From Candidatus Latescibacterota bacterium (lineage in GTDB: Bacteria; Latescibacterota; UBA2968; UBA8231): a stretch of 64,000 nt of DNA. The stretch spans positions 1,120,001-1,184,000 of the forward strand of contig OZ253462.1 of NCBI GenBank assembly GCA_965261395.1, in the 5' to 3' direction. The notes below the pieces were generated by a model. The model was not told the origin of the DNA. It did not search any database and worked only from the letters and a program-made list of their open reading frames with translations. Both the position numbers and the translations under genes were made by a program. Positions 12,035-63,455 of the stretch are shown here, in pieces. How positions within the stretch are numbered: position 1 is the first letter of the stretch; each line of letters begins with the position of its first letter.

Positions 12035-12061
12035 AGAGAGGTTCACAATAAGCTGTCTTAA

Positions 12062-12864: not shown

Positions 12865-12878
12865 TCATCTACTTAACT

Positions 12879-27416: not shown

Positions 27417-27449
27417 TCTCATTGAATAATCATTTTGGTGGAGAATTCC

Positions 27450-44783: not shown

Positions 44784-44791
44784 TTTCTTTC

Positions 44792-44820
44792 TTGACTTAA
44801 GTTTTAGATGCATATATAAT
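44792..44820 (+). promoter_or_regulatory. Sigma70-type promoter for the TPR gene / envelope cluster
   Basis: TTGACT-N17-TATAAT, 80 bp upstream of ATG 44901. Confidence 0.7.
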
Positions 44821-44900
44821 ATCCGAATCTTAAATAATATATAAGACAAGCACTTGCAACGTTTTTAGCTACCACTCTGGTTCCGGAGAGAATCTACGAC

Positions 44901-46424
44901 ATGTCCTATTCGCCCGTGGATCGCATCGCCTTCCTCGCCCTCCTCTCAATCGGGGGATGCGGCGAAGTGCGGCAGGAGTCGCCAACGGGCGATCCACTGC
45001 TCGTGGTGGGGAGGGCCTATTTGGATCAGGGCCAGTACGACCAAGCGGTGGCCGTGTACCAAGAGGCCGTCCGCCGCGATTCGCTGTCCCGTGACGCGCA
45101 CTTTTACTTAGGCTTGGCGCATTTGCAGCGCAAGAGCACGGCTGCGGCCGCGCACTTTGCACGGGCCATTGCGCTGGATTCGACGTATATTCCCTCCTAC
45201 CACAATTTGGCCATCGCCCACCTCGAAGCAGGCCGCTATCCGCAGGCCGTAGAGGCGGCGGAAGTCGCGCTGCGCTTCGATCCCCAATCGCCTAGCTCCT
45301 ATCGCTTGTTGGCCTTCTTGCACAAGGAGCAGGGGCAATACGAGCGCGCCGAAGAGGCCCTGCTTAAGGCGCTTTACATCGCTCCAAAAGACGTGGAAGC
45401 GCGGCAGGCCCTGGCTTTGCTCTACAGCCAGCAGGGCCGCAGTGAGCGCGCGGAAGAGGTTTTAGTGGAAGCAGTCGAGTTGGCACCAAAGCGCAAAGAA
45501 ATCTGGCGGGACATGGGACGGCTCTACTTGAACGAGAAGCGGTACGACGAAGCAGCGCAGGCGCTCAACCGGGCCGTAGCGCTCGACGCCAACTACGGCG
45601 AGGCGTACCACGACTTGGCGAATTTGTACTCGGCCCAAGGCCGCTACGACGAAGCCGAAGCCATGCTCGCACGCTTAGAGGGGTTGCTCGACTTGGCGGA
45701 TCGGGAGGAGACCTTGGAAAAGGTGCTGGAGAAGGACCCCGACAATGTGGAGGCGCGGTTGGCGCTGGGCCGAGCGCAGACGCGCTTGGGGCGCTACGCA
45801 GACGCGCTAAGTACGTACAAGGAAGTGCTCAGCCGCGCGCCCGAGCACGTTGAGGCGCTGGCCGCGGTAGTCCAGCTCCACCTGCGGCAGGGCGATGTCG
45901 AGCGCGCCGCGCACTTGGCTGGCAAAATCGCGGCGCACGAGCCTCGGGGCCGGCGCGCGCCCGAAGCGCATTTTACCATGGGCTTTGCCCACGCGCAAAA
46001 GCAGCGTTGGGCCGAGGCCGAGGCCGCGTTTTTCCGCGCCTTGGATATCGACGCCTGCTACGCCAAGGCGCACAATGCCTTGGGCAATGTCTATGCCCTG
46101 CAGGGCGCCTTGGGAAAAGCCATCAGCGCCTATCGGGCCGCCCTCTCCTGCGATGCTGAGTTGCGCGATGCGTACTACGGATTGGGCATGGCCTTGGCCC
46201 GGCGCGAGTCCTTGACGGAGGCCATCGCCCAGTTCGAGGAGGTCGTGCGGCGCGATTCCACTCATGCGCGCTCCCACTACGCGCTGGGCCAAGCCTACGA
46301 GCAACAGGGTGAAGCCGCGGCAGCGCGACTCGCCTACGGGGCCTTTGTCCGGCACTGGCGCGGCGACGAGAAGGTGCTGGCGGCGGCTCAGAGCCGCATT
46401 GAGCATTTGCGAACACTTCAGTAG
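44901..46424 (+). CDS. Tetratricopeptide-repeat lipoprotein
   Basis: Lipobox-like SIGGC; about 12 TPR units (A.Y.LG..Y..QG.Y..A...Y..AL..DP). Confidence 0.9.
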   Translation: MSYSPVDRIAFLALLSIGGCGEVRQESPTGDPLLVVGRAYLDQGQYDQAVAVYQEAVRRDSLSRDAHFYLGLAHLQRKSTAAAAHFARAIALDSTYIPSYHNLAIAHLEAGRYPQAVEAAEVALRFDPQSPSSYRLLAFLHKEQGQYERAEEALLKALYIAPKDVEARQALALLYSQQGRSERAEEVLVEAVELAPKRKEIWRDMGRLYLNEKRYDEAAQALNRAVALDANYGEAYHDLANLYSAQGRYDEAEAMLARLEGLLDLADREETLEKVLEKDPDNVEARLALGRAQTRLGRYADALSTYKEVLSRAPEHVEALAAVVQLHLRQGDVERAAHLAGKIAAHEPRGRRAPEAHFTMGFAHAQKQRWAEAEAAFFRALDIDACYAKAHNALGNVYALQGALGKAISAYRAALSCDAELRDAYYGLGMALARRESLTEAIAQFEEVVRRDSTHARSHYALGQAYEQQGEAAAARLAYGAFVRHWRGDEKVLAAAQSRIEHLRTLQ

Positions 46425-46547
46425 ATTACAACCTCACAAGAGAAAGGAGGTCGTTACCAAAGTAAGTGCAGTGCAACGAAAGCATTTTAATTATAATACT
46501 ATGCCCCATTGTGGCGGGCGTTTTAACTAAAACCAAGGAGGATGATT

Positions 46548-47492
46548 TTGAAAAAAATCACTGTTTTGCTCGCACTGGCTCTGTGCGTGGGCGTCGTCGC
46601 TCCGGCTACGGCGCACGTGCCCGAGGGCGCGGTGCGCACAGCTTTCCAGTGGCCGGCGGGCCTTGAGCCAACGCTGGACGGCGATCTGTCCGAATGGTCG
46701 ATCGTGCCCGATGACTACTCGATTGCCTTTGCCGAGCACACCGAGTTCAACGGCGAAAGGCCGGCCGATTTCGGCGACTTGAACTTCCGCACCATCGTTG
46801 GCTGGAGCGAGTCCACCAATAGCATCTACTTGATGATGGAGCGCTTTGACGACTTCTACGATCGCGACGCCCAAGGCGGCGTGGCCGGCGGCGACGATAG
46901 CTGGGAAATGCACGTCGATGGCGACCACAGCGGCGATCAGATGCGCTTCGGCACCGCCGACATAGAGAACGAGGAAGAGCGCGCCTTGGCCCAAGGCCGC
47001 TGGTCGCAGTCCTATCACACCCGCTTCCCGAACCTCGGCCCCGATGGCCAGGAAAGCTGGTCGTGGTTTTGGATGACCCAAGCGCAGTGGCACGACGAAC
47101 TGCCCTACGCCGACCACGGCTTCCGCTTGGACGGCCAAATCGGCGGCGGCGAGGCCACGGCCTTTATCGAGGTGCGGCGCCAATCCTGGGATGACTTTCT
47201 CTTCAACGACCCGGACGGCAGCGTCATCCACGACTACAACGAGGGCGAGATCACCGGCTTGGGCTGGGCGGTCTTCGACAGCGATGTAGCCGGTGCCGAC
47301 GGCGGCGTTGGCCAGGATGCCGAGCACTCCGGTCAGTGGTCTCTTTCGGGCGCCACCGATGTGTGGAAAACCACGGCTTCGGCCACGGATTTCCTGCTGG
47401 CACCCGTTGATCCGCGCGTCGATTTCAGCGCGATTGAGAGCGCGGTCGAGGAGAATAGCTGGGGTCGCATCAAGTCCGCTTTCGTCCAGTAA
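46548..47492 (+). CDS. Secreted CBM9/DOMON-like acidic protein with C-terminal SWGRIK motif
   Basis: AGGAGG RBS with TTG 46548; signal peptide; PTLDGDLSEW, DSWEMHVDGD and G.AVFDSD; tail SAVEENSWGRIKSAF. Confidence 0.72.
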   Translation: MKKITVLLALALCVGVVAPATAHVPEGAVRTAFQWPAGLEPTLDGDLSEWSIVPDDYSIAFAEHTEFNGERPADFGDLNFRTIVGWSESTNSIYLMMERFDDFYDRDAQGGVAGGDDSWEMHVDGDHSGDQMRFGTADIENEEERALAQGRWSQSYHTRFPNLGPDGQESWSWFWMTQAQWHDELPYADHGFRLDGQIGGGEATAFIEVRRQSWDDFLFNDPDGSVIHDYNEGEITGLGWAVFDSDVAGADGGVGQDAEHSGQWSLSGATDVWKTTASATDFLLAPVDPRVDFSAIESAVEENSWGRIKSAFVQ

Positions 47493-47512
47493 GCGGGCAG
47501 TATTTAGGATGC

Positions 47513-47555
47513 AAGAACGAGGGGGGATGGGCTAGTTCCATCCCCTCTTCTTCTT
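47513..47555 (+). terminator. Stem-loop (partial terminator or mRNA-stabilising hairpin) after the CBM9-like gene
   Basis: AAGAACGAGGGGGGATGG-GCTAGTT-CCATCCCCTCTTCTTCTT, directly before the GGAGG RBS of the next gene. Confidence 0.55.
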
Positions 47556-47567
47556 GGAGGTGCCATT

Positions 47568-49550
47568 GTGAATGTGAACACGAAGGGGCGACCGGCCGGT
47601 CGCCCGTACTTACAGCGCACGACGCGGCTTATCGCGGCCCTGTTGGCTTTGTTCGGCAGCCAGCCAAGCACGGCCTTGGTCGTCTATCGCATCGGCGGCG
47701 AGAGCCTGCCGCCTCCGGCCGAGGTGGAGGCTGGTGCTGAGTTCCGCCAGTTGAGCTGGGCCGACTTAGACAAGAATCTCGGCGGCCAGAGCTTTGGGCT
47801 CGCGCTCAGTGAGCAGATCACGCCGTTTTTCTACAACGAGGGCGATAATATGGCGACGACCTTGAGCGGGGTCAGCGGCAATTTTCAGCACGGCGCGTAC
47901 AATGGTTTTGAAAATGTCGGCGACGAGTTGCGGTTGGTGATCGACGGGGACCCGACGACGTTTTTCTTAGAGACTCGTCCTAGGGAACACGCTCATAACT
48001 TCCACGGCACGGCTTTGTTCTTTGACCTCGGCGGCGACTTTGCGACGCGGTTGGTCCGCTTTATCCCGCAGGCAGGCAGCGAGCGCTCGGTCGCCCACGT
48101 CATCGTCGCCGCGCAGACCGAGGCCGGGGGTGGCGTTGATGAGATTGAATTCGTCGGAACGAGTGCGCTCAATCGGTCGCTGAGGGATCCCAAGCAAAAA
48201 AAGGGCATTGAGCTAAAGGTGGTCGCGGAAATCCTGGAAAACAAAGATCCGCAGCTCGACATTGAGCTAGACGGGACGCCCATCCGCTATTTGATGATTC
48301 ACGTGATGCCCCAAAATGAGATATGGGACTTGGCTGAGTTGGAGGTGTACGGCGGCGGTTTCCAAGGCTCGGCCTCGCACCAGTCCAACGTTCTCGACCT
48401 AGGCGAATTCGCCAATTTGGGCTGGGTGCGCTGGGGAGGGCGGCGGGACGAAGGGGCGCAAGTGGAGATCCGCTCTCGCGCCGGTGGTGACGAGACGCCG
48501 CTGGTGTACTGGCGCAAGACCTTCCGCGGCGACGAGCAGGTACCCTTTGGCGAGGACGGCAAGCTGCTGACCCGCAAAACCTATGGCCGCTTGGGGCCGA
48601 TTGTGCGCGGGGCCATCACCGACGACACCGCCCAATGGGAGCTGTGGTCGTCGCCGTACGAATTCGCCGACAGCGCGGGCGTAGCCCTGCGGGCGACGCG
48701 CTCCCATCGCTACATGCAGTTCGGGATAGCATTCAAATCCTTCGGCCAAGCCGGCGGCCAACTCGACTATCTCGAATTCGCCGTTTCCCCGCGCTTGGTG
48801 ACCGGCTTAGTCGGCGAGGTCAATCCTTGGCAAGCGGCAGTGGCTGAGGAACGCACGTTCACCTATGCATTGCGCCCGACGATTGAACCCGGCGACCAAG
48901 GATTTGACGGTTTGGACCTGCGCTTGGTCGGCGGCCGGATCGTCGGCGTGGAGGCCGTGCGCCTCAGCGGCGCACCCGTGGCGGATTTCAGCGCCGTGGC
49001 CGAGGATGCCGGCGTAATGTTGGGTTTCCCGCGGCTGGATGTCGCGCGTAGCGGCGAGCTGCTTGAAGTGGATTTACGCGCCGAAATTTTCCGCTTTGGC
49101 GCAATTTTTGAAGGTCGGGTGATCGACAGCACAGCGCCGGGGGAAATCGGGCAACTCGTGGCCGCTGGCGAGGCCAGCGAGCTAGTGGACGGCAACCAAC
49201 TTTCGGTGCAGGCGATGACCCTAAACGATAGGGTCTTAGGGGCGGTGTCGCTGAGCGCTGCGGCGTTTACGCCCAACGGCGATCAGATCAACGACCAAGT
49301 GGAGATTGCCTACGAACTGCTCAAAGTGACCGAGCCGGTGTCGGTGGAGGTGCTGGTGCGGGATTTGAGTGGCCGCTTGGTGCGGCGCGTGTACTCAGAC
49401 GCCGATGGCGCAGGTCGGCATCCGCGCCAATGGGACGGGCGCGACGAGGCTGGCCAGCAGGTGGCACCCGGTCTGTACATCTGCCAAGTCGAGGTCGAGA
49501 GTGGTGGGCAGCGCCAAGTGCAAATGCGGCCCATTGCCGTCGCCTATTGA
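47568..49550 (+). CDS. Secreted discoidin-like + FlgD Ig/T9SS-type-B-CTD-like protein (paralog 1)
   Basis: Signal peptide; IDGD...FFDLG; AELEVYG.GF; WELWSSPY; FTPNGDQIND...DLSGRLVR...WDGRD..G..VAPGLY. Confidence 0.78.
   Translation: MNVNTKGRPAGRPYLQRTTRLIAALLALFGSQPSTALVVYRIGGESLPPPAEVEAGAEFRQLSWADLDKNLGGQSFGLALSEQITPFFYNEGDNMATTLSGVSGNFQHGAYNGFENVGDELRLVIDGDPTTFFLETRPREHAHNFHGTALFFDLGGDFATRLVRFIPQAGSERSVAHVIVAAQTEAGGGVDEIEFVGTSALNRSLRDPKQKKGIELKVVAEILENKDPQLDIELDGTPIRYLMIHVMPQNEIWDLAELEVYGGGFQGSASHQSNVLDLGEFANLGWVRWGGRRDEGAQVEIRSRAGGDETPLVYWRKTFRGDEQVPFGEDGKLLTRKTYGRLGPIVRGAITDDTAQWELWSSPYEFADSAGVALRATRSHRYMQFGIAFKSFGQAGGQLDYLEFAVSPRLVTGLVGEVNPWQAAVAEERTFTYALRPTIEPGDQGFDGLDLRLVGGRIVGVEAVRLSGAPVADFSAVAEDAGVMLGFPRLDVARSGELLEVDLRAEIFRFGAIFEGRVIDSTAPGEIGQLVAAGEASELVDGNQLSVQAMTLNDRVLGAVSLSAAAFTPNGDQINDQVEIAYELLKVTEPVSVEVLVRDLSGRLVRRVYSDADGAGRHPRQWDGRDEAGQQVAPGLYICQVEVESGGQRQVQMRPIAVAY
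47586..47605. repeat. Perfect 20-bp palindrome (REP-like) in the 5' end of the CDS
   Basis: GGGCGACCGGCCGGTCGCCC followed by GTAC. Confidence 0.6.
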
Positions 49551-49562
49551 GGAGCAGGGGCC

Positions 49563-52055
49563 ATGTTGAATGCTGCGTTGTTGCTGAGCATATTGGGCGT
49601 TGTCGCCGCCTGGGGACAGGGCCATACCATCGCTGGGAATAAGGTCGTCGTCGATCGGCAGGCGCACTGGCAGCAGTGGACTTTTCCCGCCGGCACGCTC
49701 GACATCGACGAAACCGGGGCCGTGCGTCCTCACTTCGTGTCCAAGAACATACTGGCAACCTCAGACATCGCGGCGTTTATCAAGCGCGGCAAGGACTCGG
49801 AGGACGCGACCCTGCGCGACGCCCTCAACGCGGGCACTCGGGCCGCAGATCTGGTCCACCTTTTCGACGGAGACTTGAGCACCTATTGGGAACCTGATCC
49901 GGCAAGCCCGCTGCGCCAATGGTGGTTCGAGGTCGATTTGGGGCGGCTGGTGGCAGCCACCCACATCCGGCTCAAATTCGTCGGCGAGGAGCTAGGCGAC
50001 CCCTTCCTGCAATTCGTGGTCTTGACCTCGGACGGAGACGAGGTGACGAAAGGCCAGCGCAAATTCAACCAAGTCTTTCGCACTTTGCAGTCGAACAAGG
50101 ATCAACGAGAATTTGCAATCGAGCTGGGCCCCACGCGCTTTGACATAGACGGGCGCATGGCGAGCGACTACATCCGCTTCGTGCGCATGACGATCACCGA
50201 CACGGATAGCACGCGAGCCGCCGAGGTGTCGGCTGAACAATACGACCAGCTAGCGGCTGCGGATCAAGGCGCGGTGGATTTTTACAAAAAGGCCGGTGCG
50301 GGCCAAGTGCAGGTGAGCGAGGCCACGTACGAGGTGGTTGACTCCGCGTTGCGCGGTGAGATCCGCCGCTATCGCCGCGAGCGGCCGCGGCTGGCCGAGC
50401 TGGAGGTCGAGACGCTCGGGGAAAACATCTCGCTGGGATTGGTGGAGCGCAGAGGCGTCGCGCTGCTCACCTTCTTGGACAACGCGCCCGCGACGGCCTT
50501 CTTCGACGGCATCTTCGAGACGTCCTTGGCCTTTACCAGCACCGACGAGATACGGGAGTTATTCTTCGACTTAGGCTCTTCCTTCTGGATCGACCGGCAC
50601 CAGATTTACTACGACCGTCAGCGCAGCCGCTTTCCCAATTACGACTTGCAGACTTCAGACGGCTCGCTGGCTGCGGACGGCTCGCTGGTGTGGACGACGC
50701 AGGCCTCGCATCGCAATCGCGCCACTTCCGCCCACACGACCGAAGATGTGTACGACGTGGATACGTTCGCGCCGGCGCGAACGCGCTTTGCGCGAATTTT
50801 GTTCTGGGGAGGCGGTCAGTTCAAGCCGCGCGAGGTGCAGTTCTACGGAGAGGGCTTCCAGCCGGAGGTCGAGTTGGTTCCGCCGCTCATTCGCTTGGGC
50901 GGCTCGAAAAACTTGGTCTCGATTGAGTGGGATGGAGACGCCGGCTTGGGGACCTTTATCGAAATCCAGACGCGCACGGGCAGCGAGCTGGTCGAAGAGT
51001 ATAGCTACTTCAACAGCGGCGGCGGCGAAGTTTCGGCCGACGCATACGCCGGCTTGGGCTTTTTCAGCAAGGGGCGGATCGACACGACGGAAGCTCCCGG
51101 AGCCGACTGGAGCGCGTGGAGCTTGCCCTACGAGGCGTCGGGCGCGGCGATCACTTCTCCAAGCCCGCGCCAATTTCTGCTGCTCAAGGCCCGCTTGCTC
51201 TCGGACGACCCACACCGCGCGGCCGAGCTGCGCTCCATTCGGCTCAACTTCGTCGAGCCGCTGGCCAGCCAGCTTTTGGGCGAGATCGAACCCAGCGTCG
51301 TGGGCGCGTTGGGCAAGGAGCAGGAGCTTTCGCTTTTCATCAAACCAAGTTTCGCTCCCCAGAGCGCGGGGTTTGACGAGGTGCAGATAAGGGCACCGGA
51401 CAACATGGCACTGGAGTTCCGCGGCCTGCGGCTAGGGCGCGAGGCCCAATGGGAGAGCGCGGAACTAGCGGCCTCAGCAGAAGTAGTGGCGACCGCCCCA
51501 GACTCTTTGTGGGTGCGGTTAAGCGAGGTCGTCGGCCCGTCCGCAGCCGATCTGATTGAGGTGCAATTCGCCACCGCCCTCTATTTACCCGGTGCTGTGT
51601 TCAAGGCGTCGTTGGGGTATTCGGCCCTTGAGAACTCTTGGCAGCGGGTTGATCCAGCGGATGCAACGGAATTGGCGACTGGGCAGGGGATGCTGTTGGT
51701 CGGCCCAGAAGGTGGCCGACACGTGCTGGGCGATCTGAGCATTGGCAGTGGGATCGCGACACCGAATGGGGATGGGATCAACGACGAGTTGGCGTTCTCA
51801 TTCGCGGTCACCAAGCTGACCGGCACCCAGCCGCTCCACGTGCGGATTTACGACCTAGCTGGTCGGCTGGTGCGGCACTGGCGAGAGACGCGGCCCTTGG
51901 TCAGCGGCGAGTACGCCCTGCGCTGGTCGTGCGAGGATCAATCCGGCGCACTGGTCGCCCCCGGACTGTATCTGCTAGAGGTAGAAGTGGTGCCCAACGA
52001 CGACTCGCGCGTGGAGCGCACCGCGCGGCACCGCCTCGTTCACGTGGTGTATTGA
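49563..52055 (+). CDS. Secreted discoidin-like + FlgD Ig/T9SS-type-B-CTD-like protein (paralog 2)
   Basis: Signal peptide; LFDGDLSTYW..WFEVDLG (F5/8C-like) plus a second copy; QTRTG; WSAWS; TPNGDGINDE...YDLAGRLVR...VAPGLY. Confidence 0.78.
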   Translation: MLNAALLLSILGVVAAWGQGHTIAGNKVVVDRQAHWQQWTFPAGTLDIDETGAVRPHFVSKNILATSDIAAFIKRGKDSEDATLRDALNAGTRAADLVHLFDGDLSTYWEPDPASPLRQWWFEVDLGRLVAATHIRLKFVGEELGDPFLQFVVLTSDGDEVTKGQRKFNQVFRTLQSNKDQREFAIELGPTRFDIDGRMASDYIRFVRMTITDTDSTRAAEVSAEQYDQLAAADQGAVDFYKKAGAGQVQVSEATYEVVDSALRGEIRRYRRERPRLAELEVETLGENISLGLVERRGVALLTFLDNAPATAFFDGIFETSLAFTSTDEIRELFFDLGSSFWIDRHQIYYDRQRSRFPNYDLQTSDGSLAADGSLVWTTQASHRNRATSAHTTEDVYDVDTFAPARTRFARILFWGGGQFKPREVQFYGEGFQPEVELVPPLIRLGGSKNLVSIEWDGDAGLGTFIEIQTRTGSELVEEYSYFNSGGGEVSADAYAGLGFFSKGRIDTTEAPGADWSAWSLPYEASGAAITSPSPRQFLLLKARLLSDDPHRAAELRSIRLNFVEPLASQLLGEIEPSVVGALGKEQELSLFIKPSFAPQSAGFDEVQIRAPDNMALEFRGLRLGREAQWESAELAASAEVVATAPDSLWVRLSEVVGPSAADLIEVQFATALYLPGAVFKASLGYSALENSWQRVDPADATELATGQGMLLVGPEGGRHVLGDLSIGSGIATPNGDGINDELAFSFAVTKLTGTQPLHVRIYDLAGRLVRHWRETRPLVSGEYALRWSCEDQSGALVAPGLYLLEVEVVPNDDSRVERTARHRLVHVVY

Positions 52056-52066
52056 GGGGGGTTGCG

Positions 52067-54232
52067 ATGTACTGGTTGCCGATCGCGCTGCTGTTGCTAG
52101 CGGCACTGCAAGGCACCGCCGAGACGCGGAGCATTGCCATCGGCGGCGCGAGCGGATCGTCTTGGCAAGACGGCGGCGGCCAGATACAGGCGGTTTTCCC
52201 GACCGGAGCCAGAGCTGTCGAGAGCGGCAACACCCCGGGCGGCGTGATCGATTTCGATCCCGAGGACCGGGTGGGTTGGATTTTTCCGCAGAACGTCGTC
52301 GAGGGCACTAATCTAGCCTTAGGAATACTCGGGCGCGGCGGCTCGGTCATTTCGCCGACGGTCCTCGAAGCGGGCATTGAGTCGCAGCTAGAGACGATGA
52401 TCGACGGCGACGGCAAAACGGCATTGGAGCGCAAGAACGTGGCCGTCATTCGCGGCATGGCCATGGACTTTGACCTAGGCGCTCGCTTTGGGGTCAATCG
52501 CGTCCAATTCTTCCCGCGCAATGGCCACCCGGATTTTCCCGCAGCGCCTTTCCAAGAAGACTTCATCCGCGGATACGAGTTGTTTTTCAACGACGGCAGC
52601 GAGGAGACGCAAGGTGCGGGCGGTCCGGAATGGCGCTCGTTTCGGTTGAATGCTGCCAATCAAGACGCGCTAGTCGATCTGAGCATTCCCCCGCAATTTG
52701 TGCGTTTCATCCGCTTGCAGTCGCGCACCAGCAACGGTTTTGAGATCGCCGAGTTCCGCGTCTTTGGCACCGGCTTCGTGCCCACGGCCGAATACGTATC
52801 CAACATATTCGATCTCGGCCCAGATTTGGGCCTGTGGGGGACCATTCGCTGGGTGGAGGAAAGCGTCGGCCCGGCTGGTTTCGCCAACGCACGCGTGCGC
52901 ACCCGCACCGGCTTGGACGACACCCCCTTGGTCTATACCCGGCGCTTCTTCTTTGAGGGGGTCCAAGTCGAGGTGCCGTGGAAAAAGAATGCCACAGTTG
53001 AAGCCGAGGGCGGCGAGGTCAATCTCGATCAAGCCCATCTGGAGAGGGCGCGCGCACTCTTTGGCGCGCTGCCGCTGGAGGAGCGCAACGCCATCTCGCT
53101 GTCGCTGGATGATTACAATGGCTTGGGTGCCGAACGGGGCAATGTGGTGGCCGACCTAGACGCTTGGAGCCCGTGGTCCTCGCCCTACGATTTAGGGGCC
53201 CTATTGACCGAGGCAGAGATCGAGGATAGCCAATTGGGCGTGCCGATTGTCTCGCCTGGGCCGAGGCGGTACATACAGTTTCGCATCGACTTTCTCAGCG
53301 AGGACTTGGAGGCGGCCACGGGTATCGGCCCGCTGGCCTTTACCGTGGCTACACCGCCGCCGGCCGCGCAGATTCTCGGAGAGATCTTCCCGCGTCAGGT
53401 CGATTTGGGCAAGCCGGTGGATTTCGTCTATGCGGTGATGCCGACGTCCATTCGGCCAGGTGTAGATACGGGCTTTGACGGGTTTGAGATTGCCACGCCG
53501 GTGCGGATAGAGATCATTGAGTCCATCGAAGTCGTCGATGCCGATGGCCAGGTAGAGGCAGCGGACTTTTCAATGGCCGATCTTGCCGCGCTGCCGGCTA
53601 CCGACGAGACCGGACGCTTTGCCATTGAGTCGGTCAGTGCGCGCCGCTTTCGCGTGCGCTTCCCCCTCATTGCCGAAAGCGAACTGGCGACCGGACGGAC
53701 GGCCCAGCTCAAAATTCGCTTTCGCAGCCGCGTGTTGCGCTACGGCACTAAGTTTGCCGGTTTTGCCTTCAGCAGTGCCGAGGGGGACGTGGGGCAGGAG
53801 GTAGTCGCCGGCAACGTGGCCGCGTTGGCCCCTGGCGACGACGATATTGTGGCTGTTGGCACGGAGACGAACCGGGGCCTTTCGGTGGATGTGCCGCTAG
53901 CCGGTAGCAGCGCCCTGCTGATCAACGTGCGCACCGAACCCCGGCCCTTCAGCCCCAACGGCGATGGAATCAACGACGCGACGCACGTGTACTACGATCT
54001 GAGCCGTTTGGTCAGCCCGGCACCAGTCGAGGTGGAAATCGTCGATTTGGCTGGACGCCGGGTGCGCCGGCTGTTCTCTGGCCTCCAGGGCGGGGGTTCG
54101 TACGCCATGCCTTGGGACGGCGCAGATGCGAACGGAGCCGCGCTGCCGCCGGGCATCTACTTGGTGCGCGTAACGCTGGTCAGCGATGCGGGCGGCGAAA
54201 GCGCGGTTAGAGTTGTCGAATTAGTGTACTAA
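52067..54232 (+). CDS. Secreted discoidin-like + FlgD Ig/T9SS-type-B-CTD-like protein (paralog 3)
   Basis: ATG 52067 with a signal peptide (the ORF-track start at 51929 overlaps the previous gene); IDGD...DFDLG; RTRTG; WSPWSSPY; FSPNGDGIND...DLAGRRVR...LPPGIY. Confidence 0.78.
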   Translation: MYWLPIALLLLAALQGTAETRSIAIGGASGSSWQDGGGQIQAVFPTGARAVESGNTPGGVIDFDPEDRVGWIFPQNVVEGTNLALGILGRGGSVISPTVLEAGIESQLETMIDGDGKTALERKNVAVIRGMAMDFDLGARFGVNRVQFFPRNGHPDFPAAPFQEDFIRGYELFFNDGSEETQGAGGPEWRSFRLNAANQDALVDLSIPPQFVRFIRLQSRTSNGFEIAEFRVFGTGFVPTAEYVSNIFDLGPDLGLWGTIRWVEESVGPAGFANARVRTRTGLDDTPLVYTRRFFFEGVQVEVPWKKNATVEAEGGEVNLDQAHLERARALFGALPLEERNAISLSLDDYNGLGAERGNVVADLDAWSPWSSPYDLGALLTEAEIEDSQLGVPIVSPGPRRYIQFRIDFLSEDLEAATGIGPLAFTVATPPPAAQILGEIFPRQVDLGKPVDFVYAVMPTSIRPGVDTGFDGFEIATPVRIEIIESIEVVDADGQVEAADFSMADLAALPATDETGRFAIESVSARRFRVRFPLIAESELATGRTAQLKIRFRSRVLRYGTKFAGFAFSSAEGDVGQEVVAGNVAALAPGDDDIVAVGTETNRGLSVDVPLAGSSALLINVRTEPRPFSPNGDGINDATHVYYDLSRLVSPAPVEVEIVDLAGRRVRRLFSGLQGGGSYAMPWDGADANGAALPPGIYLVRVTLVSDAGGESAVRVVELVY

Positions 54233-54246
54233 TTAGGGAGGGTCTA

Positions 54247-57003
54247 ATGAGAGACCTGCGGAGGATACTCGTCGCCTTGCTCGTCGCGGCGATAAGCGCC
54301 CATGCCCAAGGCCGGCGCTGGGGCGCGGAAATCACCTATGAGCCTCGGGGGCCGGGCGTGCTCTTCGACGCCTTGGATCCAACGGTCAAGCGCTGGTACG
54401 TGCCACAGGAGCTGTTTGCCGACTACGGTTGGCAGCAGTGGCAGTACACCAACTACGCGCGCGATGCGTACGAGCGCTACGTCAGCACCACGATTGAAGG
54501 CTCTCCGTTCTACGATCTGTACGGCAACTACTTGACGCGCGGCTGGCTCATCTACGACTGGAGCCAGAACCAGCCCGTGCAGTTTGGTTCGTCCATCTTC
54601 AAGGATCAGCGCTTTAACAATTGGTTCAACGCGGTCACCATTAGCTCGGACTCGCAGGGGCAGTTCTACTATGCAATCACGGTGGGCGATCGAATCCGCA
54701 CCACCCTGACCCCGCTCACCTTCTCCAAGCCCGCCTTCAGCGGCGTGCAGATGGACTTTGCTGCGGACAAATACGAAGGCACTCTGCTTTTTTCGCGGGT
54801 GAGTCGCCCGGTCATCGGCAGCACGCCCAGCGACCCCAGTTCCGTCTCCAATGCTACCAACCTGATGGCTGGCCGCGCCGTGGTCCAGCTCGGCGATTTC
54901 GTGGCTGTGGGGGCCAATTTAGTCAATGCGCGCAACTCCACCACGGTGGCCGATGCGTTTGAGCGCAACCCCTTCGTCGGCACCCTCGCTGCCAATCAGG
55001 GCAGCCTACCAATATCGGGCATTGCCCTAGTTCTCAGCGACGACTCGCCCGAGGACGGTCGGGGCGGGGCAACCCTGTTTTCGCACGACATCGTCTTGAC
55101 GAGCGAGGATCCAGATACGGGAGCGCGCGAGCAGTTTAGGCTCCGCGACGTGGTCTCCGACCCAGCGCGGTGGCCCGTGGTCTCGGGCGGGGCACCCAAG
55201 GAAGGGGCCTTGGCGGCCGACGGCGACGAGAAGATCGTCATCAACTACGACTTCGCGGATATCGCCTATACTGGCCCGCGTCCCTCGGAGATCGTCGCCG
55301 TACAATTCGACTTAGTCTTGGCCAATGACTACAAGGTACAGATTTGGTCCGACCGGCAGACGGGCAGCCGCGCGCTGCCCGTCTTGCCGCTGACGGGCCA
55401 AGACATTGAGGATCAGTCCCCGGCGTTGTTCGACATCCTCAGTGCCGAGGGCAATGTGCAGGACAATTCCAACCAGCAGCGAGTCGTCTTCGACTACGGA
55501 TTGCCGTCGTCCCGCTTGATCTACGGCTTCACCTTGGACGCCACGGACATCAAGGGCGTGGACCTATACGCGGAATTCGATGTCAGCCGCGCGTACAGCC
55601 AATACCCCAACCCGGCGCGCCAAGCAGCCCAGCGCTCGCTAGCCACGCACGCCCGCGACGCCGAGGCTTGGATGGTCAACGCCTCGAAGATGGCCTCCCC
55701 GTTTTACTTTTTCGGCGAGGCGTACAGCATGGACCCGGAGTACTCGACGAGTTCGTTTATCGTGGACGACGGCGGGGACATCACCTACGACAATCCGCGC
55801 ATGTCCCTGTACGAGTTGGTTGACGACAACGACGACCAAGACCGCTCGGCCGATTGGTTCCGCTTCTCGCAGGGCGGCGGCGATGTGGCCGTCTTCCCGG
55901 GGTGGGACGAGAACAACGACTTTGTCTCCGACTTCAACCAAAACGACAATCGCATCCTCAACAACCGCATCCCGGATTACGAAGAGCCTTTCTTTCGCTA
56001 TGCGGCCGATCGCCCGGAGTTTTTGTTTGGCATCGACCTGAACAACAATGGTTGGATCGACCGCTTTGAAAACGACGACTTGCCCGACTATCCCTACAAG
56101 GTCGATCGCCGAGGCTATAACCTGTACGCCGGCGTCTTTCTCGACCCGCATACTCGGCTGACGCTGGGAAGGCTGAGCGAAGAGAGCATGGCCTCTGACG
56201 GGCGCAACCGCGCCGCGTATGGCCTGCTGACCTACGACCGCGACTTTACTTGGGGCCGACTGCGGGCCTTTGAGATGCTGCGGCGCGTCGAAGACGATAT
56301 CGCCGATGACCGGCGCGAGATGACGCCGCACCTCGAAGTCAACTCGCTCGCGCTGGTGCGCGACATTCTGCCGGCGCGGGACACGTGGATCAACACGACC
56401 TATTTACAGCTCGATTACCAACCGCTCGACAATCTAAACGCGAACAACAAGTTCAAGTACGAGCGTTTTTGGCAGCAGGGTAGCGCGTTCAAAAGCCGCG
56501 TCAAAGGCCCGGTGCTCAACCAAGGCAGCCACTTGATTGGGTTGATCAACAAAGCGGATTACACCTTCGGCTTGGCTGGCTTCCGGTTGCAGCCCAAGGT
56601 CAAGAGCGAGTATCTCAACCAGACCGCGCTCGAAGCGCGCGCCGAGGATCGCGAGGAATGGGTCGGCACGGGCATCGTGCTGCTGAGCCACCCGCTGTTG
56701 AGCCAGTCGCTGGTGGAAGGGGGCGTCGAGTTTTCCCTGTTCCGGGACTTGGCTCTCGACGAGGACGAGCAGCTCACCAACGGCCCGGCCGGGCCTACGG
56801 GCGACTTCCGCAACTTGGTGCTGGCCCTGCAATGGTCCAGCGCCGGCTCCTACTTGGGCTACCAGCTCACGACTCAATTTGGCTTTAGTTACACGCGCCT
56901 GTGGGAGGAGCGGGTGATTATCGGCAGCGAAGGCTTGGAGCAGGTGAATGAAATCAGCGCCTTTAGCACCAGCTTCATAACCGTGTACGCGGGGCTGGAG
57001 TAG
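54247..57003 (+). CDS. Large exported hypothetical protein, putative outer-membrane beta-barrel (paralog A)
   Basis: Signal peptide; aromatic-rich amphipathic strands; acidic DxDxN motifs; extensive motif identity with the next gene. Confidence 0.65.
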   Translation: MRDLRRILVALLVAAISAHAQGRRWGAEITYEPRGPGVLFDALDPTVKRWYVPQELFADYGWQQWQYTNYARDAYERYVSTTIEGSPFYDLYGNYLTRGWLIYDWSQNQPVQFGSSIFKDQRFNNWFNAVTISSDSQGQFYYAITVGDRIRTTLTPLTFSKPAFSGVQMDFAADKYEGTLLFSRVSRPVIGSTPSDPSSVSNATNLMAGRAVVQLGDFVAVGANLVNARNSTTVADAFERNPFVGTLAANQGSLPISGIALVLSDDSPEDGRGGATLFSHDIVLTSEDPDTGAREQFRLRDVVSDPARWPVVSGGAPKEGALAADGDEKIVINYDFADIAYTGPRPSEIVAVQFDLVLANDYKVQIWSDRQTGSRALPVLPLTGQDIEDQSPALFDILSAEGNVQDNSNQQRVVFDYGLPSSRLIYGFTLDATDIKGVDLYAEFDVSRAYSQYPNPARQAAQRSLATHARDAEAWMVNASKMASPFYFFGEAYSMDPEYSTSSFIVDDGGDITYDNPRMSLYELVDDNDDQDRSADWFRFSQGGGDVAVFPGWDENNDFVSDFNQNDNRILNNRIPDYEEPFFRYAADRPEFLFGIDLNNNGWIDRFENDDLPDYPYKVDRRGYNLYAGVFLDPHTRLTLGRLSEESMASDGRNRAAYGLLTYDRDFTWGRLRAFEMLRRVEDDIADDRREMTPHLEVNSLALVRDILPARDTWINTTYLQLDYQPLDNLNANNKFKYERFWQQGSAFKSRVKGPVLNQGSHLIGLINKADYTFGLAGFRLQPKVKSEYLNQTALEARAEDREEWVGTGIVLLSHPLLSQSLVEGGVEFSLFRDLALDEDEQLTNGPAGPTGDFRNLVLALQWSSAGSYLGYQLTTQFGFSYTRLWEERVIIGSEGLEQVNEISAFSTSFITVYAGLE

Positions 57004-57007
57004 CGGC

Positions 57008-59866
57008 ATGAATGCCCGCTTGCGCCGCGTCGGCGCTCTCTGCTGGGTCGCGCTGCTTTGGGCTGTGCCGCTCAAGGCCCAGCGCGAGGATTACGGTAGC
57101 CGCTTGGGCCGCATCGAAGCGGGCCAGCCGATCTACTATTCGTCCGGTACGGGGCTGCGCATGGAGGCCGTCTATCCCTCGTTGCAGAAGTGGTATCTGC
57201 CGCAGGAGATCGCCGGTGAGTACCGCCGACAGTGGAGCTACACCAATTACGCGCGGGACCCATACCGGCGCTACCTCGATCCGGGGTTGGAGGGCGGGTA
57301 CTTCTACGACCTCTACGGGCGCTTCTTGAACAAGGGGTGGTTGGTCTACGACTGGCGTCAGATCCAGCCGACCGGCTCGGGCGGCTCGGGCATTTTGCAG
57401 GCCGGCCAATACGGCTCGTGGTTCAGCAACTTGGTCCTTGCCGGCGACACTAAGGGCCAGCACTACTTCTCGGTGCTCATCGGCGACGAGATCTTCGCCA
57501 TGCTGACGCCCATGACCTTTCGCAAGACCGCGTACAATGGGGTTATGTTCAACTACGCGGCTGATCGCCTGACGGCCACCGTGCTCATGTCGCGGATCAA
57601 CCTGCCGCTCTTCCGCACGGACCCCTTTCCCGTGACAGAGAACAATTTTACCAACCTCATCGGCGGGCGCGTGGTCTGGGACCTTGGCAATACGACGCGG
57701 ATCGGCGGCACCTTCCTCAACGCGCACAACGGCCGCACGGCTTCCGACCGCTTTGAGGGACACCCGCTCAAGGGCAAGCTGACGAGCGGCCAGCTAGACG
57801 GACGCATCGACCGCATCGTGGTGCGGCTGACCGACGATTCGCCCGAAGACGAGGGTGGCGGGGCCGTGCTTTTTAGCAGCGACATTGAGATTGAGACGCG
57901 GATCGGCGAGCGGGATACCCTGCTAATTGGCAGTCAAATTGGCTTTGCGCCGCGCATCATCGGTGGGGTCGAGCGGGGTGGTTTTCTGACGGCCGAGGGC
58001 CGGGGCGAGGCGAGCCAGATCTTGCTCGAATACGTGTTTTCTGACGACGATCCAGCGGTCTCGGACCTAGAGGCCGTAGTGCCGAGCGCGGACTTGGTCA
58101 ACCAAATCAGCCGGGTGCGCTTCCGCTTGGTGTTGGGCAACGACTACAAGGTAGAGGTCACGTCCAACCGCCAGACCGACAACAACGCCAGCGGCGAGCA
58201 GCCGCAGTTTCGCACGGTCGCCCGGGCCGAGGGCAACGTCTGGGACAACTCCAACCAGCGCACGGTCGTCTTCGACTACGGGCTGCCGACGGCGACGCAG
58301 GTGGCCGGGCTGACGCTACAGGGCGACGATTGGGCTGGCTTCCGCGCGTACGGCGAATTCAACGTCAATCACCAATTCACCCAGTACCCGACGCGGACGC
58401 GGGATACGCACAAGGCGTCCTCGGGCATTGGCGGGGATCGCGCGGCCCTCGGCTGGATGTTCAATATCTCGCGCCGCTTCGCACCGTTTTTCTTTTTTGG
58501 CGAGGCATTCGGCCTAGACGCCGAGTACTACACGAGCCCGCGCTTTGTCGATAGCAGCGGCCGGGTGGATTGGTCAGACGACGACGAAGCACGGGCACGG
58601 CACGTGTACGACTTTGTCGATGACAATGACGACAACGACCGCATCAACGACCAAAAGCGCCGCTTTGACGACGGCCGCACCGGTGACCAGCGCGGAGTCC
58701 GCGCGCGCACCTTTGAGGGCTTTGCCGACGACGCGGTCTTTCCGGGCCTCGACGAGAACAACGACTTCATTTCCGACTTCAATCAGAACGATCTGCGCCA
58801 GCGTCCCAATTTCTTGCCCGACTACGAAGAGCCGTTTCTCCGCTACAATGTCGATCGGCCCGAGTATCTCTTCGCCCTCGACTTGAACAACAACGGCTGG
58901 GGCGACCGCTTTGAAAACGACGAAGAGCCCGACTATCCCTACCGGCGCGACCGGCGCGGGTACAACGCCTATCTAAGCGCGGAGCTCCGGCCCGAGCTCA
59001 GGCTGACGACTGGACAGGTGTGGGAGCGCAAGCCGACGACGGGTGCGCGCAACCGCACGTATTATGCCCTGCTCGCGTACGAACAGAGCTTTGCCGGATT
59101 GGGCACGCTGACGGCGTATAATTCGTTCAAGTGGGTTGCCGACGCGATCGCCGAAGACTTGGTGCAGTGGATTCAACTGCGCCCCGTGCTCGGCCGCCCG
59201 AGCAACTCCCCGGGCAGCATGATCGCGATCCGCGATCCGCTGGGCATGGGCGACGCCTTGGTCAACAAGCTGTGGATAGGAGCTGAGCGCCGCGGCCGCG
59301 ATGGCTTCCAAAGCGAGAACAAGCTGCTGTATGAATTCATTCAGCAGCGGCGAGAAGATGCCGTTGACCGCGATGGCCGCCGCTTGCAACGCAATGCGCG
59401 GCGCTTGGGGCTGATCAACAAGGCCGAGTACCCGGTGCATTTGGGCCGCATAACCGCGCTACCGCGCCTCAAGCAAGAGCTATTCATGGACGATACCCCG
59501 TTCAATATCGAGCGGCAGCTGGGCACCCCCACAGCCGAGCGCCGCGACTGGAGCACGATGGCCTCGGTATTGGTAAAGGTGCCCTTTATGAAACGCTCGG
59601 TCGTACAACTCGGCGTGGAGCACTTGCGCTTCCGCGACATGGTCGTGGACGAGACCGCAGTAACCCCAAGCGACCCCACCGGGGACTACGACGAGACGTC
59701 CTTTGCCGTGCAATTGTCCAATACGACATCGTACTTGGGCTATAAGCTCATGTCCCAAGTGGGGCTGCGCATTGACAAGCGGCAGATAGAGCGCGCGGCG
59801 CAGCAGGCCCGCACCGAGACCAGCGGTTTGACTTTCGTCACAGTACAAGCAGGGCTTAGTGATTAG
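57008..59866 (+). CDS. Large exported hypothetical protein, putative outer-membrane beta-barrel (paralog B)
   Basis: Signal peptide; shares WY.PQE, YTNYARD, DDSPED, DNSNQ..VVFDYGLP, DENNDF.SDFNQND, DLNNNGW.DRFEND and TV.AGL with paralog A. Confidence 0.65.
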   Translation: MNARLRRVGALCWVALLWAVPLKAQREDYGSRLGRIEAGQPIYYSSGTGLRMEAVYPSLQKWYLPQEIAGEYRRQWSYTNYARDPYRRYLDPGLEGGYFYDLYGRFLNKGWLVYDWRQIQPTGSGGSGILQAGQYGSWFSNLVLAGDTKGQHYFSVLIGDEIFAMLTPMTFRKTAYNGVMFNYAADRLTATVLMSRINLPLFRTDPFPVTENNFTNLIGGRVVWDLGNTTRIGGTFLNAHNGRTASDRFEGHPLKGKLTSGQLDGRIDRIVVRLTDDSPEDEGGGAVLFSSDIEIETRIGERDTLLIGSQIGFAPRIIGGVERGGFLTAEGRGEASQILLEYVFSDDDPAVSDLEAVVPSADLVNQISRVRFRLVLGNDYKVEVTSNRQTDNNASGEQPQFRTVARAEGNVWDNSNQRTVVFDYGLPTATQVAGLTLQGDDWAGFRAYGEFNVNHQFTQYPTRTRDTHKASSGIGGDRAALGWMFNISRRFAPFFFFGEAFGLDAEYYTSPRFVDSSGRVDWSDDDEARARHVYDFVDDNDDNDRINDQKRRFDDGRTGDQRGVRARTFEGFADDAVFPGLDENNDFISDFNQNDLRQRPNFLPDYEEPFLRYNVDRPEYLFALDLNNNGWGDRFENDEEPDYPYRRDRRGYNAYLSAELRPELRLTTGQVWERKPTTGARNRTYYALLAYEQSFAGLGTLTAYNSFKWVADAIAEDLVQWIQLRPVLGRPSNSPGSMIAIRDPLGMGDALVNKLWIGAERRGRDGFQSENKLLYEFIQQRREDAVDRDGRRLQRNARRLGLINKAEYPVHLGRITALPRLKQELFMDDTPFNIERQLGTPTAERRDWSTMASVLVKVPFMKRSVVQLGVEHLRFRDMVVDETAVTPSDPTGDYDETSFAVQLSNTTSYLGYKLMSQVGLRIDKRQIERAAQQARTETSGLTFVTVQAGLSD

Positions 59867-61538
59867 ATCGAAGTACGCGGTATATTGGTTGTGGCTCCTC
59901 TTTTTCTGGAGCTGCGGTACACCCACCGAGGACTTGGTGGTGGCCCGAGTCGGCGAGGTGGAAATCGACGCCCCCCAATTGCTGGAATTTGAAGAAAGGC
60001 TACACCCCGATCTGCGGAGCAAAAAGACGGGTGCTGACGCCTATTTCGACTACCTGCAAACTATGATCGATAAGGAGCTCATGGTCCTAGAGGCCAAAAA
60101 GCGGGGCCTCGATCAGCGTGCCGACTTCCGCCGCAGGATGGACAAATTGCATAGCGACCGCGTCTTGCGCCGCTTTTTGCAGCTAGAGGTGTACGACAAG
60201 ATCGTCCACACGCAAGAAGAACTGCTGGCCCATCAACGAGAGACGGGCCGCGACCGCGCCGTGCAGGTGCGGCGCATCGTAGTTGCCACAATACAAGGGG
60301 CGCGAGAAGTCAAGGCGGCCTTGGAGGGCGGTGACTACTTCGATACATGGGCCAGCCGCAACCTGCTCGACGCGACTCAGCTAGAGGGAGGTCGCTACCT
60401 GATCAAGGACGAGCTGTACCCACGCATCTTGCAGGAGAAGGTCTTTCCGCTGGCACCGGGCCAGTTTTCGGAGCCGGTGCTCTTCAACGACCAATTCGGC
60501 GTGTACGAGGTAACAGCCGAAGTGCCGGTCAAGCTCTCGGTCGTGCAGTCGGTAATCGAGGCCGAACTGCTCAAGGAGAAGCTGCCGCCGGCCGTGCAGG
60601 CGCTGTCGGCCCGCTTGCGGCAGGAACTCGACTTTGTGGTTCACGCCGAGGCCTTGGAGCGCGTGCGCGGCCGCATCGGGCAGGGTGCCAAAGCGTTTTC
60701 TGCGGAGGAGCTTGAGCAGCCTATCTACGAGCACGAGAGCGGCGTCTTTACCATCGGCGATTTGCTCGATTTCGCCCGCGAGCTAGGCGTCGGCTTCCCA
60801 GAGGACGCGCCCGAGCAGTTCGACTGGTTCGTCCATGACATCGTCGAGCCGCGCGCGCTGCTTTTGGCCGGCGCGTATACGGCGGGCGTTGACCGCGAAG
60901 AGGGCGTGGTCGCTTGGTTCCAAAAGCGGCAGCTATCAAACCTGCTGGTGGCCATGCGCCGGGACGTGGTTGATGGTGTCTTCGCTAGCCGCGAAGAAGC
61001 TCGCGCGTTCTACGACCGCCACTTAGACCTCTTCCGCCCCCTCGAATCGATCGGTGTGCAGGAAGTTTTGCTCCGCACCGAGGAGGAGGCACTGGCGCTG
61101 CGCGAGGAAGTGGAGCGCGGCGGCGACTTAGGCGCGCTGGCTGCCGAGCACACCCTGCGCCGGCGCGGCAAAGCCCAGCAGGGCGAGTTCCACTTGCATC
61201 CTTGGGAGAAGCAACAGTTCGTCCCCCTCTTTGAGGCGGCACAAGGGCAAAAAATCGGCGCACTCATCGGCCCTATCGCCGTGGAGGTCACTGCTGCCGA
61301 AGTGCTAAGCCCTGAGCCGGTCAGCGGCCCGTATTACGCCATTTTCCGATTGCTTGATTCGACGATCAACGCCGCACCGAGGCCCTTCGAGCAGGCCGAG
61401 CGCCGCGCTCGGGCGCTGGTGCGCCGCCAAAAGCAGGAGCGGCTCTTTGGGCAATTCATCATCCAATTGCGCCACCAATACGCAGCGCAAATCGAGGTCT
61501 TCCGCGCGCAGGTGGAGGCCCTCGTCCGCAACACATGA
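59859..61538 (+). CDS. SurA/PrsA-like lipoprotein with two parvulin (PpiC)-like domains
   Basis: Lipobox-like FWSC; VVARVG..EI; L..MIDKEL...EA...GLD; L..GQFSEPV; GGDLGALAAEHT; PFEQA. Confidence 0.75.
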   Translation: MIRSKYAVYWLWLLFFWSCGTPTEDLVVARVGEVEIDAPQLLEFEERLHPDLRSKKTGADAYFDYLQTMIDKELMVLEAKKRGLDQRADFRRRMDKLHSDRVLRRFLQLEVYDKIVHTQEELLAHQRETGRDRAVQVRRIVVATIQGAREVKAALEGGDYFDTWASRNLLDATQLEGGRYLIKDELYPRILQEKVFPLAPGQFSEPVLFNDQFGVYEVTAEVPVKLSVVQSVIEAELLKEKLPPAVQALSARLRQELDFVVHAEALERVRGRIGQGAKAFSAEELEQPIYEHESGVFTIGDLLDFARELGVGFPEDAPEQFDWFVHDIVEPRALLLAGAYTAGVDREEGVVAWFQKRQLSNLLVAMRRDVVDGVFASREEARAFYDRHLDLFRPLESIGVQEVLLRTEEEALALREEVERGGDLGALAAEHTLRRRGKAQQGEFHLHPWEKQQFVPLFEAAQGQKIGALIGPIAVEVTAAEVLSPEPVSGPYYAIFRLLDSTINAAPRPFEQAERRARALVRRQKQERLFGQFIIQLRHQYAAQIEVFRAQVEALVRNT

Positions 61539-61548
61539 GGAGGCTAAA

Positions 61549-63447: not shown

Positions 63448-63455
63448 GAGGCGAC

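Follow-up and report, generated by a model that had tools for sequence, protein, structure and literature searches.

What do eight envelope-protein genes, lying side by side and read in the same direction, do together in the genome of an uncultured bacterium? The genes in question occupy positions 44901-61538 of the stretch of DNA that was analysed (64,000 nucleotides, here called the window), which corresponds to positions 1,120,001-1,184,000 of a single-contig Latescibacterota chromosome of 6.55 Mb, estimated to be 95% complete. The Latescibacterota are widespread and uncultured, and are common in sponges and sediments; we know of no view of their feeding that does not derive from enzyme inventories. 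According to the open reading frame (ORF) listing, all eight ORFs are on the + strand. We call them g1 to g8 and assign their products, whose signal peptides were read off the sequence, to five families: a tetratricopeptide repeat (TPR) lipoprotein (T, g1), a secreted protein with a predicted CBM9 fold (C, g2), three secreted proteins whose C-terminal domains resemble those of type IX secretion system (T9SS) cargo (D, g3 to g5), two large proteins predicted to be outer-membrane beta-barrels (B, g6, and its paralog B', g7) and a periplasmic lipoprotein of the PpiC/parvulin type (P, g8).

An earlier note on this DNA had proposed that the cluster encodes an undescribed cell-surface assembly or export machine. 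Our analysis shows that it is one copy of a conserved, heavily duplicated modular envelope cassette, the members of which diverge together. As far as our searches reach, the conserved and undescribed module of the note stands, whereas its assembly or export role and its nature as a single physical machine are suppositions. With a probability of about 0.4, we read the cassette as a module for surface nutrient capture and outer-membrane uptake, which would be similar to SusCD in its working and made of unrelated parts.

Repetition of the cassette in the genome and across the phylum

The search of the own genome with g6 gave 56 matching pieces that, once merged, correspond to barrel genes at 32 loci, eight of which carry tandem pairs and one of which carries three barrels. 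About 46 B genes are thus distributed over 32 cassettes, spanning 432 kb or 6.6% of the chromosome. B, C, D and P are found together at 18 of the 32 loci, and all three D subtypes at 19, on the basis of a crude best-hit assignment. When one genome per species was scanned with a pattern, at least 646 relatives were returned, and the best 80 loci from other genomes were kept. Several of these are cut by contig ends. Every one of the 80 has B, 79 have D, 64 P, 59 C, 48 T and 10 the family of the downstream gene g9. With the families found together 32 times in the genome and in 80/80 related loci, chance falls far short of explaining their grouping. Although identity between the copies has dropped to 25-50% and there are several gene orders and orientations, the families stay together; the order differs between cassette types, with the g5-type gene remaining directly upstream of B. 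Two of the checks that the earlier note had put forward, conservation of synteny and number of paralogous copies, turned out in its favour, as gene order is kept in relatives (80 loci) and the genome holds 32 cassettes.

The barrel was found in 93 of the 151 sampled genomes of the phylum, the own genome included. It is present in all 63 other genomes of the same family and in 29 of 31 genomes from nine other families, and absent from the sampled genomes of three further Latescibacterota families (0/30, 0/19 and 0/5). The records of the nearest relatives, at 95% protein identity, are metagenome-assembled genomes labelled Latescibacterota or, under older labels, Gemmatimonadetes. In one database, 1092 of the 8000 candidates scored matched the B family at E ≤ 0.001, none of them with a Pfam domain and all, among the source names shown, called "hypothetical protein". 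In another database the family comprises 719 representative clusters.

Predicted folds, secretion tags and periplasmic helpers

The products of g6 (54247-57003, 918 aa) and g7 (57008-59866, 952 aa) share 37% identity over 976 columns (E 0.0), and are the two homologous proteins of ~930 aa recognised in the earlier note. Neither has a Pfam, NCBIfam or PDB sequence match, singly or as a 33-sequence profile, and no Pfam family was found in the 33 members even at E ≤ 5. The AlphaFold2 (AF2) model of g6, built with 33 aligned homologues, has a mean predicted local distance difference test score (pLDDT) of 64.7 and a predicted template modelling score (pTM) of 0.63; its residues 142-523 and 621-918 consist almost entirely of long antiparallel strands. 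Every match listed by Foldseek at E ≤ 1e-4 is an outer-membrane barrel, and these matches include Deinococcus SlpA/SDBC, LptD, MtrB, TonB-dependent receptors and ushers, with template modelling scores (TM-scores) of 0.13-0.33. The exhaustive VIA search retrieved only membrane beta-barrels, mostly from the outer membrane, with Z values of 10-13 and with porins and sugar channels among them. These matches support the prediction that g6 belongs to the class of large outer-membrane barrels, with no particular known barrel family favoured, and agree with the barrel-like character that the note had attributed to the large proteins. The best Foldseek matches, namely the plug-and-barrel complexes LptD-LptE, MtrB-MtrA and Deinococcus SlpA, have 26-30 strands and need an occupant in the lumen. 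However, with TM-scores of 0.15-0.33, an identity of 6-10% and no LptE, cytochrome or SLH partner in the cassette, the likeness is one of fold class only.

Two parts of the barrel protein are particularly well conserved in the family. The N-terminal region (residues 22-167), modelled with a pLDDT under 50, has a mean column identity of 0.76 and 27 invariant positions. The acidic block at residues 524-620 has a column identity of 0.82, with 46 of its 97 positions invariant and 37% of its residues being Asp, Asn or Glu. When strands assigned with DSSP are counted back from a periplasmic C-terminus, this block would lie in an extracellular loop of the model. A relationship of B to SprA was considered and rejected: hhalign gave a probability of 0.7% over 30 columns, and the shared acidic motif of the DLNNNG type is not significant. 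The genome's own SprA homologue (2156 aa, 2064938-2071408) contains a DRPD..DLNNNGVLDR stretch that looks like the acidic block of B, a resemblance for which homology is not shown. The nearest named cluster in the Atlas, DUF6029, was also discarded, as its score of 0.89 makes it a lead at most and no Pfam match accompanies it. The prediction of a complex between g6 (22-918) and the C-terminal domain of g5 (625-721) scored 0.02, as compared to a mark of 0.32, and counts neither way.

The product of g2 (46542-47492, 316 aa) could be classified through its structure model, whereas at the sequence level the 35 members matched no Pfam family (E ≤ 5) and their profile no CBM9 chain of the PDB (E ≤ 10). 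The AF2 model of the mature protein (pLDDT 79, pTM 0.83) matches the CBM9 module of Thermotoga maritima Xyn10A (1i82_A) with a VIA Z of 20.1 and a root mean square deviation of 2.4 Å over 188 of 189 residues. The next matches are 4jpq_B (Z 16.5), a "putative carbohydrate-binding protein" from Bacteroides, followed by 2ivf_C (11.8) and 7b04_C (11.2), all others being below 8; Foldseek found 7nwn with an E value of 1.7e-8. The model thus has the beta-sandwich of CBM9, and the CBM9-like nature assigned to this small protein by the note is right at the level of the fold. Compared with the known proteins of the CBM9/DOMON-like fold, g2 differs in standing alone, as a secreted protein of ~290 aa, in having extra loops and in lacking a match to Pfam or PDB sequences.

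Three features of the g2 family are not accounted for by the CBM9 fold. A His residue directly follows the predicted signal-peptide cleavage site in 35/35 homologues (27-92% identity; codon at 46614 in the window), a DxDH motif is invariant (46917-46928), and a conserved tail, TAVExxSWGxIK, closes the protein (47430-47480). Among the ORFs of at least 150 aa in the genome, 37 have this tail, nearly all of them being of ~290-350 aa. The N-terminal His, together with a weak hit of the g2 profile to an AA10 enzyme (E 0.13), led us to consider g2 as a lytic polysaccharide monooxygenase, which was rejected as the fold is that of CBM9 and the second His is misaligned. Since 2ivf_C and 7b04_C are the haem-binding DOMON-like subunits of ethylbenzene dehydrogenase and nitrite oxidoreductase, the question arises whether g2 also has a metal or haem ligand. 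As a bolder side reading, the N-terminal His and the DxDH motif might bind metal or haem, and g2 might then be a partner with a redox or metal-dependent role and not simply a lectin.

The three D proteins are encoded by g3 (47568-49550, 660 aa, the ~640-aa subtype), g4 (49563-52055, 830 aa, the ~850-aa subtype) and g5 (52067-54232, the ~740-aa subtype). The ORF of g5 spans 51929-54232, and the ATG at 52067 is its most likely start, giving 721 aa. The proteins are mutually homologous, with 26-28% identity over 423-668 columns (E 1e-30 to 6e-49), and a FlgD_ig domain was detected in each, at 42.2 bits in g3 and 40.8 bits in g5 (cut-off 27) and, below the cut-off, at 23.1 bits in g4, in line with the three homologous FlgD-type proteins of the note. 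In g4, a discoidin-type domain was also matched (F5_F8_type_C_2, 34.1 bits; F5_F8_type_C, 29.4 bits). The models used for T9SS cargo were TIGR04183 and PF18962 for type A and TIGR04131 and PF13585 for type B. The scores of CHU_C, the type B signal family, were 24.1, 17.5 and 21.1 bits in g3, g4 and g5, all below the cut-off of 27; TIGR04183 was matched by g5 only (18.6 bits, below the cut-off of 23), and TIGR04131 by none of the three at E ≤ 0.01. In the homologues of the g5 type, both FlgD_ig and CHU_C were matched in 28/28 members at E ≤ 0.1 (best CHU_C value, 3.2e-11) and the C-terminal domain carries the motif F[ST]PNGDGxND. The corresponding stretch of g3 is FTPNGDQIND.

A profile of the g5-type C-terminal domain found 211 ORFs of the genome tagged at their C-terminus, 93 of them in cassettes or within 3 kb of one and 118 elsewhere. 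Because so many tagged ORFs lie outside the cassettes, the domain is probably the general export tag of this organism, and the barrels would then not be needed to explain the export of g3, g4 and g5. The genome encodes SprA (473.7 bits) and PorU (618.4 bits), both above cut-off, the latter adjoining an ORF for a PorV-like protein (150 bits, below the cut-off of 250). These finds go well with the T9SS-type C-terminal domain that the note had placed on the three paralogs. The GldM, GldL and PorP/SprF (PF11751) models gave no match genome-wide, but they were also silent in the control genomes, so that the absence of these proteins is not established.

The remaining two products, g1 (44901-46424, 507 aa) and g8 (59859-61538, 559 aa), look like periplasmic helpers. 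g1 matches TPR_2 with an E value of 7.5e-55 and has a lipobox-like LSIGGC; g8 matches Rotamase_2 at residues 377-514 (52.3 bits, cut-off 27) and has a lipobox-like FFWSCG. No SurA_N family was listed for g8 in the Pfam scan, and its best NCBIfam matches are far below the cut-offs. With a crude regular expression, a lipobox-like Cys motif was found in 40 of the 62 PpiC-type and in 12 of the 15 TPR homologues examined; PpiC-type genes occur at 29 places of the own genome and TPR genes at 52. The arrangement recalls the accessory factors of the beta-barrel assembly machinery (the TPR lipoprotein BamD and the parvulin SurA), since a TPR lipoprotein and a PpiC-domain protein are likewise encoded with a barrel. 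The helpers of the cassette differ, however, in being private to each cassette, and the N-terminal domain of SurA was not detected in g8.

Capture and uptake weighed against anchoring and assembly

If the cassette is a capture and uptake module, g6 and g7 would fold into very large outer-membrane barrels that serve as the channel. This channel may be gated or stabilised by the N-terminal region together with the invariant acidic loop, which probably binds calcium. g3, g4 and g5 would be exported by a T9SS-like system through their C-terminal domains and would remain outside as surface binders bearing discoidin-type domains, while g2 would bind a sugar-type ligand and dock through its conserved C-terminal tail. 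The folding and assembly of the set in the periplasm would be assisted by g8 and g1. A carrier of the inner membrane, often a DUF6785 protein encoded nearby, would then bring the substrate into the cell, and the ~32 diverged copies would serve different substrates. The physical assembly of these parts, the direction of transport and the substrate are what we infer in this scheme.

We favour uptake on the grounds of the channel-type barrel, the carbohydrate-binding folds, a multiplicity like that of polysaccharide utilisation loci (PULs), the absence of SusD, and the linkage of the cassettes to membrane carriers and catabolic neighbours. SusD/RagB (PF07980) gave no match in the whole genome, with a positive control in B. 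thetaiotaomicron, and the Plug domain (PF07715), also with positive controls, gave 22 matches, 21 of them above cut-off. It follows that B, with its ~46 genes, is the most numerous large barrel family of the genome among those counted. Polytopic membrane proteins of the DUF6785/DUF6784 type have 56 matches in the genome and lie within 10 kb of 18/32 cassettes, whereas 2000 random placements gave 8.3 on average and never more than 17. In seven cassettes the distance is within 1 kb, and once such a gene lies inside a cassette, next to B; one example in a cassette flank is L099:510-2447. By sequence, DUF6785 proteins gave no PDB or Pfam match to OPT at E ≤ 10, and no paper on them was found in the literature searched. 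Among 84 ORFs flanking 10 cassettes, the recurring families are DUF6785/DUF6784 (5), FG-GAP/ASPIC, TPR, sulfatase, FGE-sulfatase and enolase-type dehydratases; aldo-keto reductases, PhyH, solute-binding proteins and a sialate-type acetylesterase are also present.

The comparison with SusC/SusD loci shows both sides of the likeness. These loci also exist in many diverged copies per genome, also pair an outer-membrane barrel of ~1000 aa with surface binding proteins, and also have catabolic and transport neighbours, and the cassette, too, includes a carbohydrate-binding fold. B, however, has no match to Plug or to the TonB-dependent receptor family (PF00593), in g6 and g7 at E ≤ 0.01 or in the 33 members at E ≤ 5; the surface proteins bear T9SS-type tags instead of lipoprotein export signals; the cassette adds a PpiC chaperone and a TPR lipoprotein, SusD is missing from the genome, and few glycoside hydrolases are nearby.

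Several points weigh against uptake. The model of g6 is of middling confidence, with 300 residues at a pLDDT below 50 that include both of the best-conserved parts. The Plug domain was not detected in B, and no search for a TonB box was made, which leaves the proposed channel with no known energy coupling. SusCD loci lack anything like the PpiC chaperone dedicated to each cassette. DUF6785 genes are near only 18 of the 32 cassettes, and the one nearest to the cassette of the window is 11.2 kb downstream (1192743-1194230). Unlike true PULs, the sampled flanks (the same 84 ORFs of 10 cassettes) hold few classical glycoside hydrolase families, and the family content of these flanks is a raw listing, not set against the genome background. 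The contigs of RNA libraries that cover the cassette, described below, prove neither transcription nor a single transcript.

Alternatively, the cassette could be a surface-anchoring platform, in which B is the cognate partner of g3, g4 and g5, takes this cargo from the T9SS translocon and holds it on the surface, as PorP/SprF-like shuttles do for cargo with type B C-terminal domains; the outcome would be a variable adhesin coat and B would not be a channel. We regard this as the main rival to uptake, possible though doubtful. In Bacteroidota, as stated in PMC9143113 and PMC12618676, genes for type B cargo adjoin those of their PorP/SprF, which the cargo binds. The cassettes look similar, as a CHU_C-like cargo gene of the g5 type (28/28 members matched, F[ST]PNGDGxND present) lies directly upstream of B in related loci and as there would be many cognate pairs per genome. 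The lack of a PorP/SprF match in the genome also speaks for this reading, but the silent PF11751 controls mean that their absence is not established. Moreover, PorP/SprF proteins are of ~300 aa, whereas B (918-952 aa) is three times this size and has no PF11751 match in g6, g7 or the 33 members at E ≤ 5; each module has three types of cargo plus C, P and T, and the tag is also on the 118 ORFs outside the cassettes with no B gene beside them, as expected of a general tag. In g3, g4 and g5 themselves CHU_C is below cut-off and TIGR04131 unmatched, and genes of the type A route (PorU, PorV-like) are present. Anchoring also leaves C, the linked membrane carriers and the chaperone unexplained. Uptake and anchoring are not mutually exclusive.

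It is improbable that the cassette is a self-contained machine that assembles or secretes a surface polymer or layer, where B would act like an usher or like the sheath of a plug-and-barrel complex (FimD/PapC, MtrB, LptD, SlpA), P as its dedicated chaperone, and D or C as subunits threaded through the barrel or lodged in it. The combination of a chaperone, a large barrel and several homologous secreted proteins does bring chaperone-usher loci to mind. Foldseek also matched B to ushers, MtrB, LptD and SlpA, and C, which has a signal peptide and no anchor or C-terminal domain of the T9SS type and shares its tail with 37 ORFs, would suit docking to a barrel. However, the eight proteins have no match to usher (PF00577), PapD-like chaperone or pilin families, ushers are matched only at the fold level with low TM-scores (0.19-0.27), and the values of 0.13-0.33 to all barrels favour no barrel class. 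The D proteins already carry a T9SS-type export tag, and thirty-two different fibres or layers per cell are hard to motivate. That the genes have no joint function, being neighbours through shared regulation or repeated duplication of the region while each product acts alone, is highly improbable: block duplication would hold neighbours together for a time, but these families have stayed together in several families of the phylum despite the divergence and the varied orders and orientations reported above. Altogether, gene order is conserved, the large proteins are modelled as barrels and not as soluble proteins, and no component maps by sequence onto SusC, SusD, PorP/SprF or ushers, so that no clean fit to a described system was found, as the earlier note had held.

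Returning to capture and uptake, a stronger form of this reading is that the Latescibacterota evolved their own outer-membrane uptake machine separately from SusCD, with a barrel of ~30 strands and of a new family, gated by an acidic loop that binds calcium, binders delivered by the T9SS, a CBM9-fold subunit lodged in or on this barrel, a chaperone and a TPR lipoprotein of its own for assembly, DUF6785 importers in the inner membrane and dozens of substrate-specific copies. We consider this rather unlikely in its entirety. If uptake is the function, the task performed by SusCD in Bacteroidota would have been solved a second time, independently, and the cassette could be used as a marker of substrate range in Latescibacterota genomes, in the way PULs are counted. 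At 6.6% of the genome and outnumbering TonB-dependent transporters 2:1, it is likely to be central to the contact of the cell with its surroundings. Under either of the two readings, uptake or anchoring, at least three families of proteins (the barrel B, the subunit C and the body of D) are unnamed, as no Pfam or NCBIfam model covers them, and T9SS-type cargo is linked to a new barrel outside Bacteroidota. No description of the cassette was found in the literature searched, the genome papers on Latescibacteria being represented by their titles and the beginnings of their abstracts. The present analysis adds the census of cassettes per genome, the fold and invariant residues of C, the tag count, the linkage to DUF6785, the distribution in the phylum and the absence of SusD.

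Promoter, neighbouring genes and RNA-library contigs

The eight co-oriented genes follow a near-consensus promoter-like site, where the earlier note had seen a consensus promoter: a sigma-70-like site, TTGACT-17-TATAAT, lies at 44792-44820 on the + strand, in an AT-rich gap before g1, and matches the consensus at 11/12 positions. It is a plausible promoter candidate, although the number of such sites in 44500-63900 (2 found, 4.3 expected) is not above chance. The scan for terminators was uninformative, with 16 sites as compared to 18.4 expected. The gaps between g1 and g2 and between g2 and g3 are of 117 and 75 bp; with the start of g5 at 52067, those from g3 to g8 are of 12, 11, 14 and 4 bp, followed by an overlap of 8 bp, which bears out the tight spacing (14 bp or less, or overlapping) described for the last six genes.

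Downstream of g8 lies g9 (family X; 61549-63447, + strand), whose product of 632 aa shows no visible signal peptide and matches neither a Pfam family nor a PDB sequence. Its family occurs at eight places in the own genome. In the 10 orthologous loci closest to this one, a member likewise lies behind the cassette; g9 is probably not a core member of the cassette. A gene for an HpcH/HpaI aldolase lies 3' of g9.

Contigs from the RNA libraries of two studies cover 27-30 of the 30 bins of 44500-63900 at 95-99% identity, and single contigs span g4-g5-g6. In three runs of one study, a contig of the g2 region (46070-47465) reached a word depth of 127-228, whereas the remainder of the cassette stayed at 9-17. 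In the second study this contig was nearly uncovered, and it has loose ends at 46385, 46614 and 47159, which indicates that other loci or strains contribute. For this reason, a ranking of the cassette genes by contig depth was rejected. In RNA contigs of a related strain, a 14-base insertion is seen behind 63444, between g9 and the aldolase gene (three runs), and a 27-base in-frame insertion behind 48988, within g3 (one run).

Upstream of the cassette, in divergent orientation, the window encodes a beta-helix protein, two FG-GAP/ASPIC proteins and a weak GH31/melibiase-like match. The FG-GAP/ASPIC (UnbV) proteins are at 37463-39382 and 41277-43484, both on the - strand. Proteins of this type are also found beside many other cassettes (flanks L099, L100, L106, L110, L111 and L118), where they are sometimes fused to TPR arrays. 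Small tandem proteins with a leucine-rich, receptor L-type domain (Recep_L_domain) were observed beside one cassette (L100:213-1915, L099:5916-6947). Farther upstream in the window, an ORF of 1349 aa without a Pfam family (29460-33509, - strand) is directly downstream of a gene for a DUF4143/AAA_14 ATPase (33506-34756, - strand), and a Fic-domain protein is encoded at 27435-28985. The G+C content of 12001-14000 is 0.50, as compared to about 0.60-0.65 elsewhere in the window, and this segment may be foreign or RNA-coding DNA.

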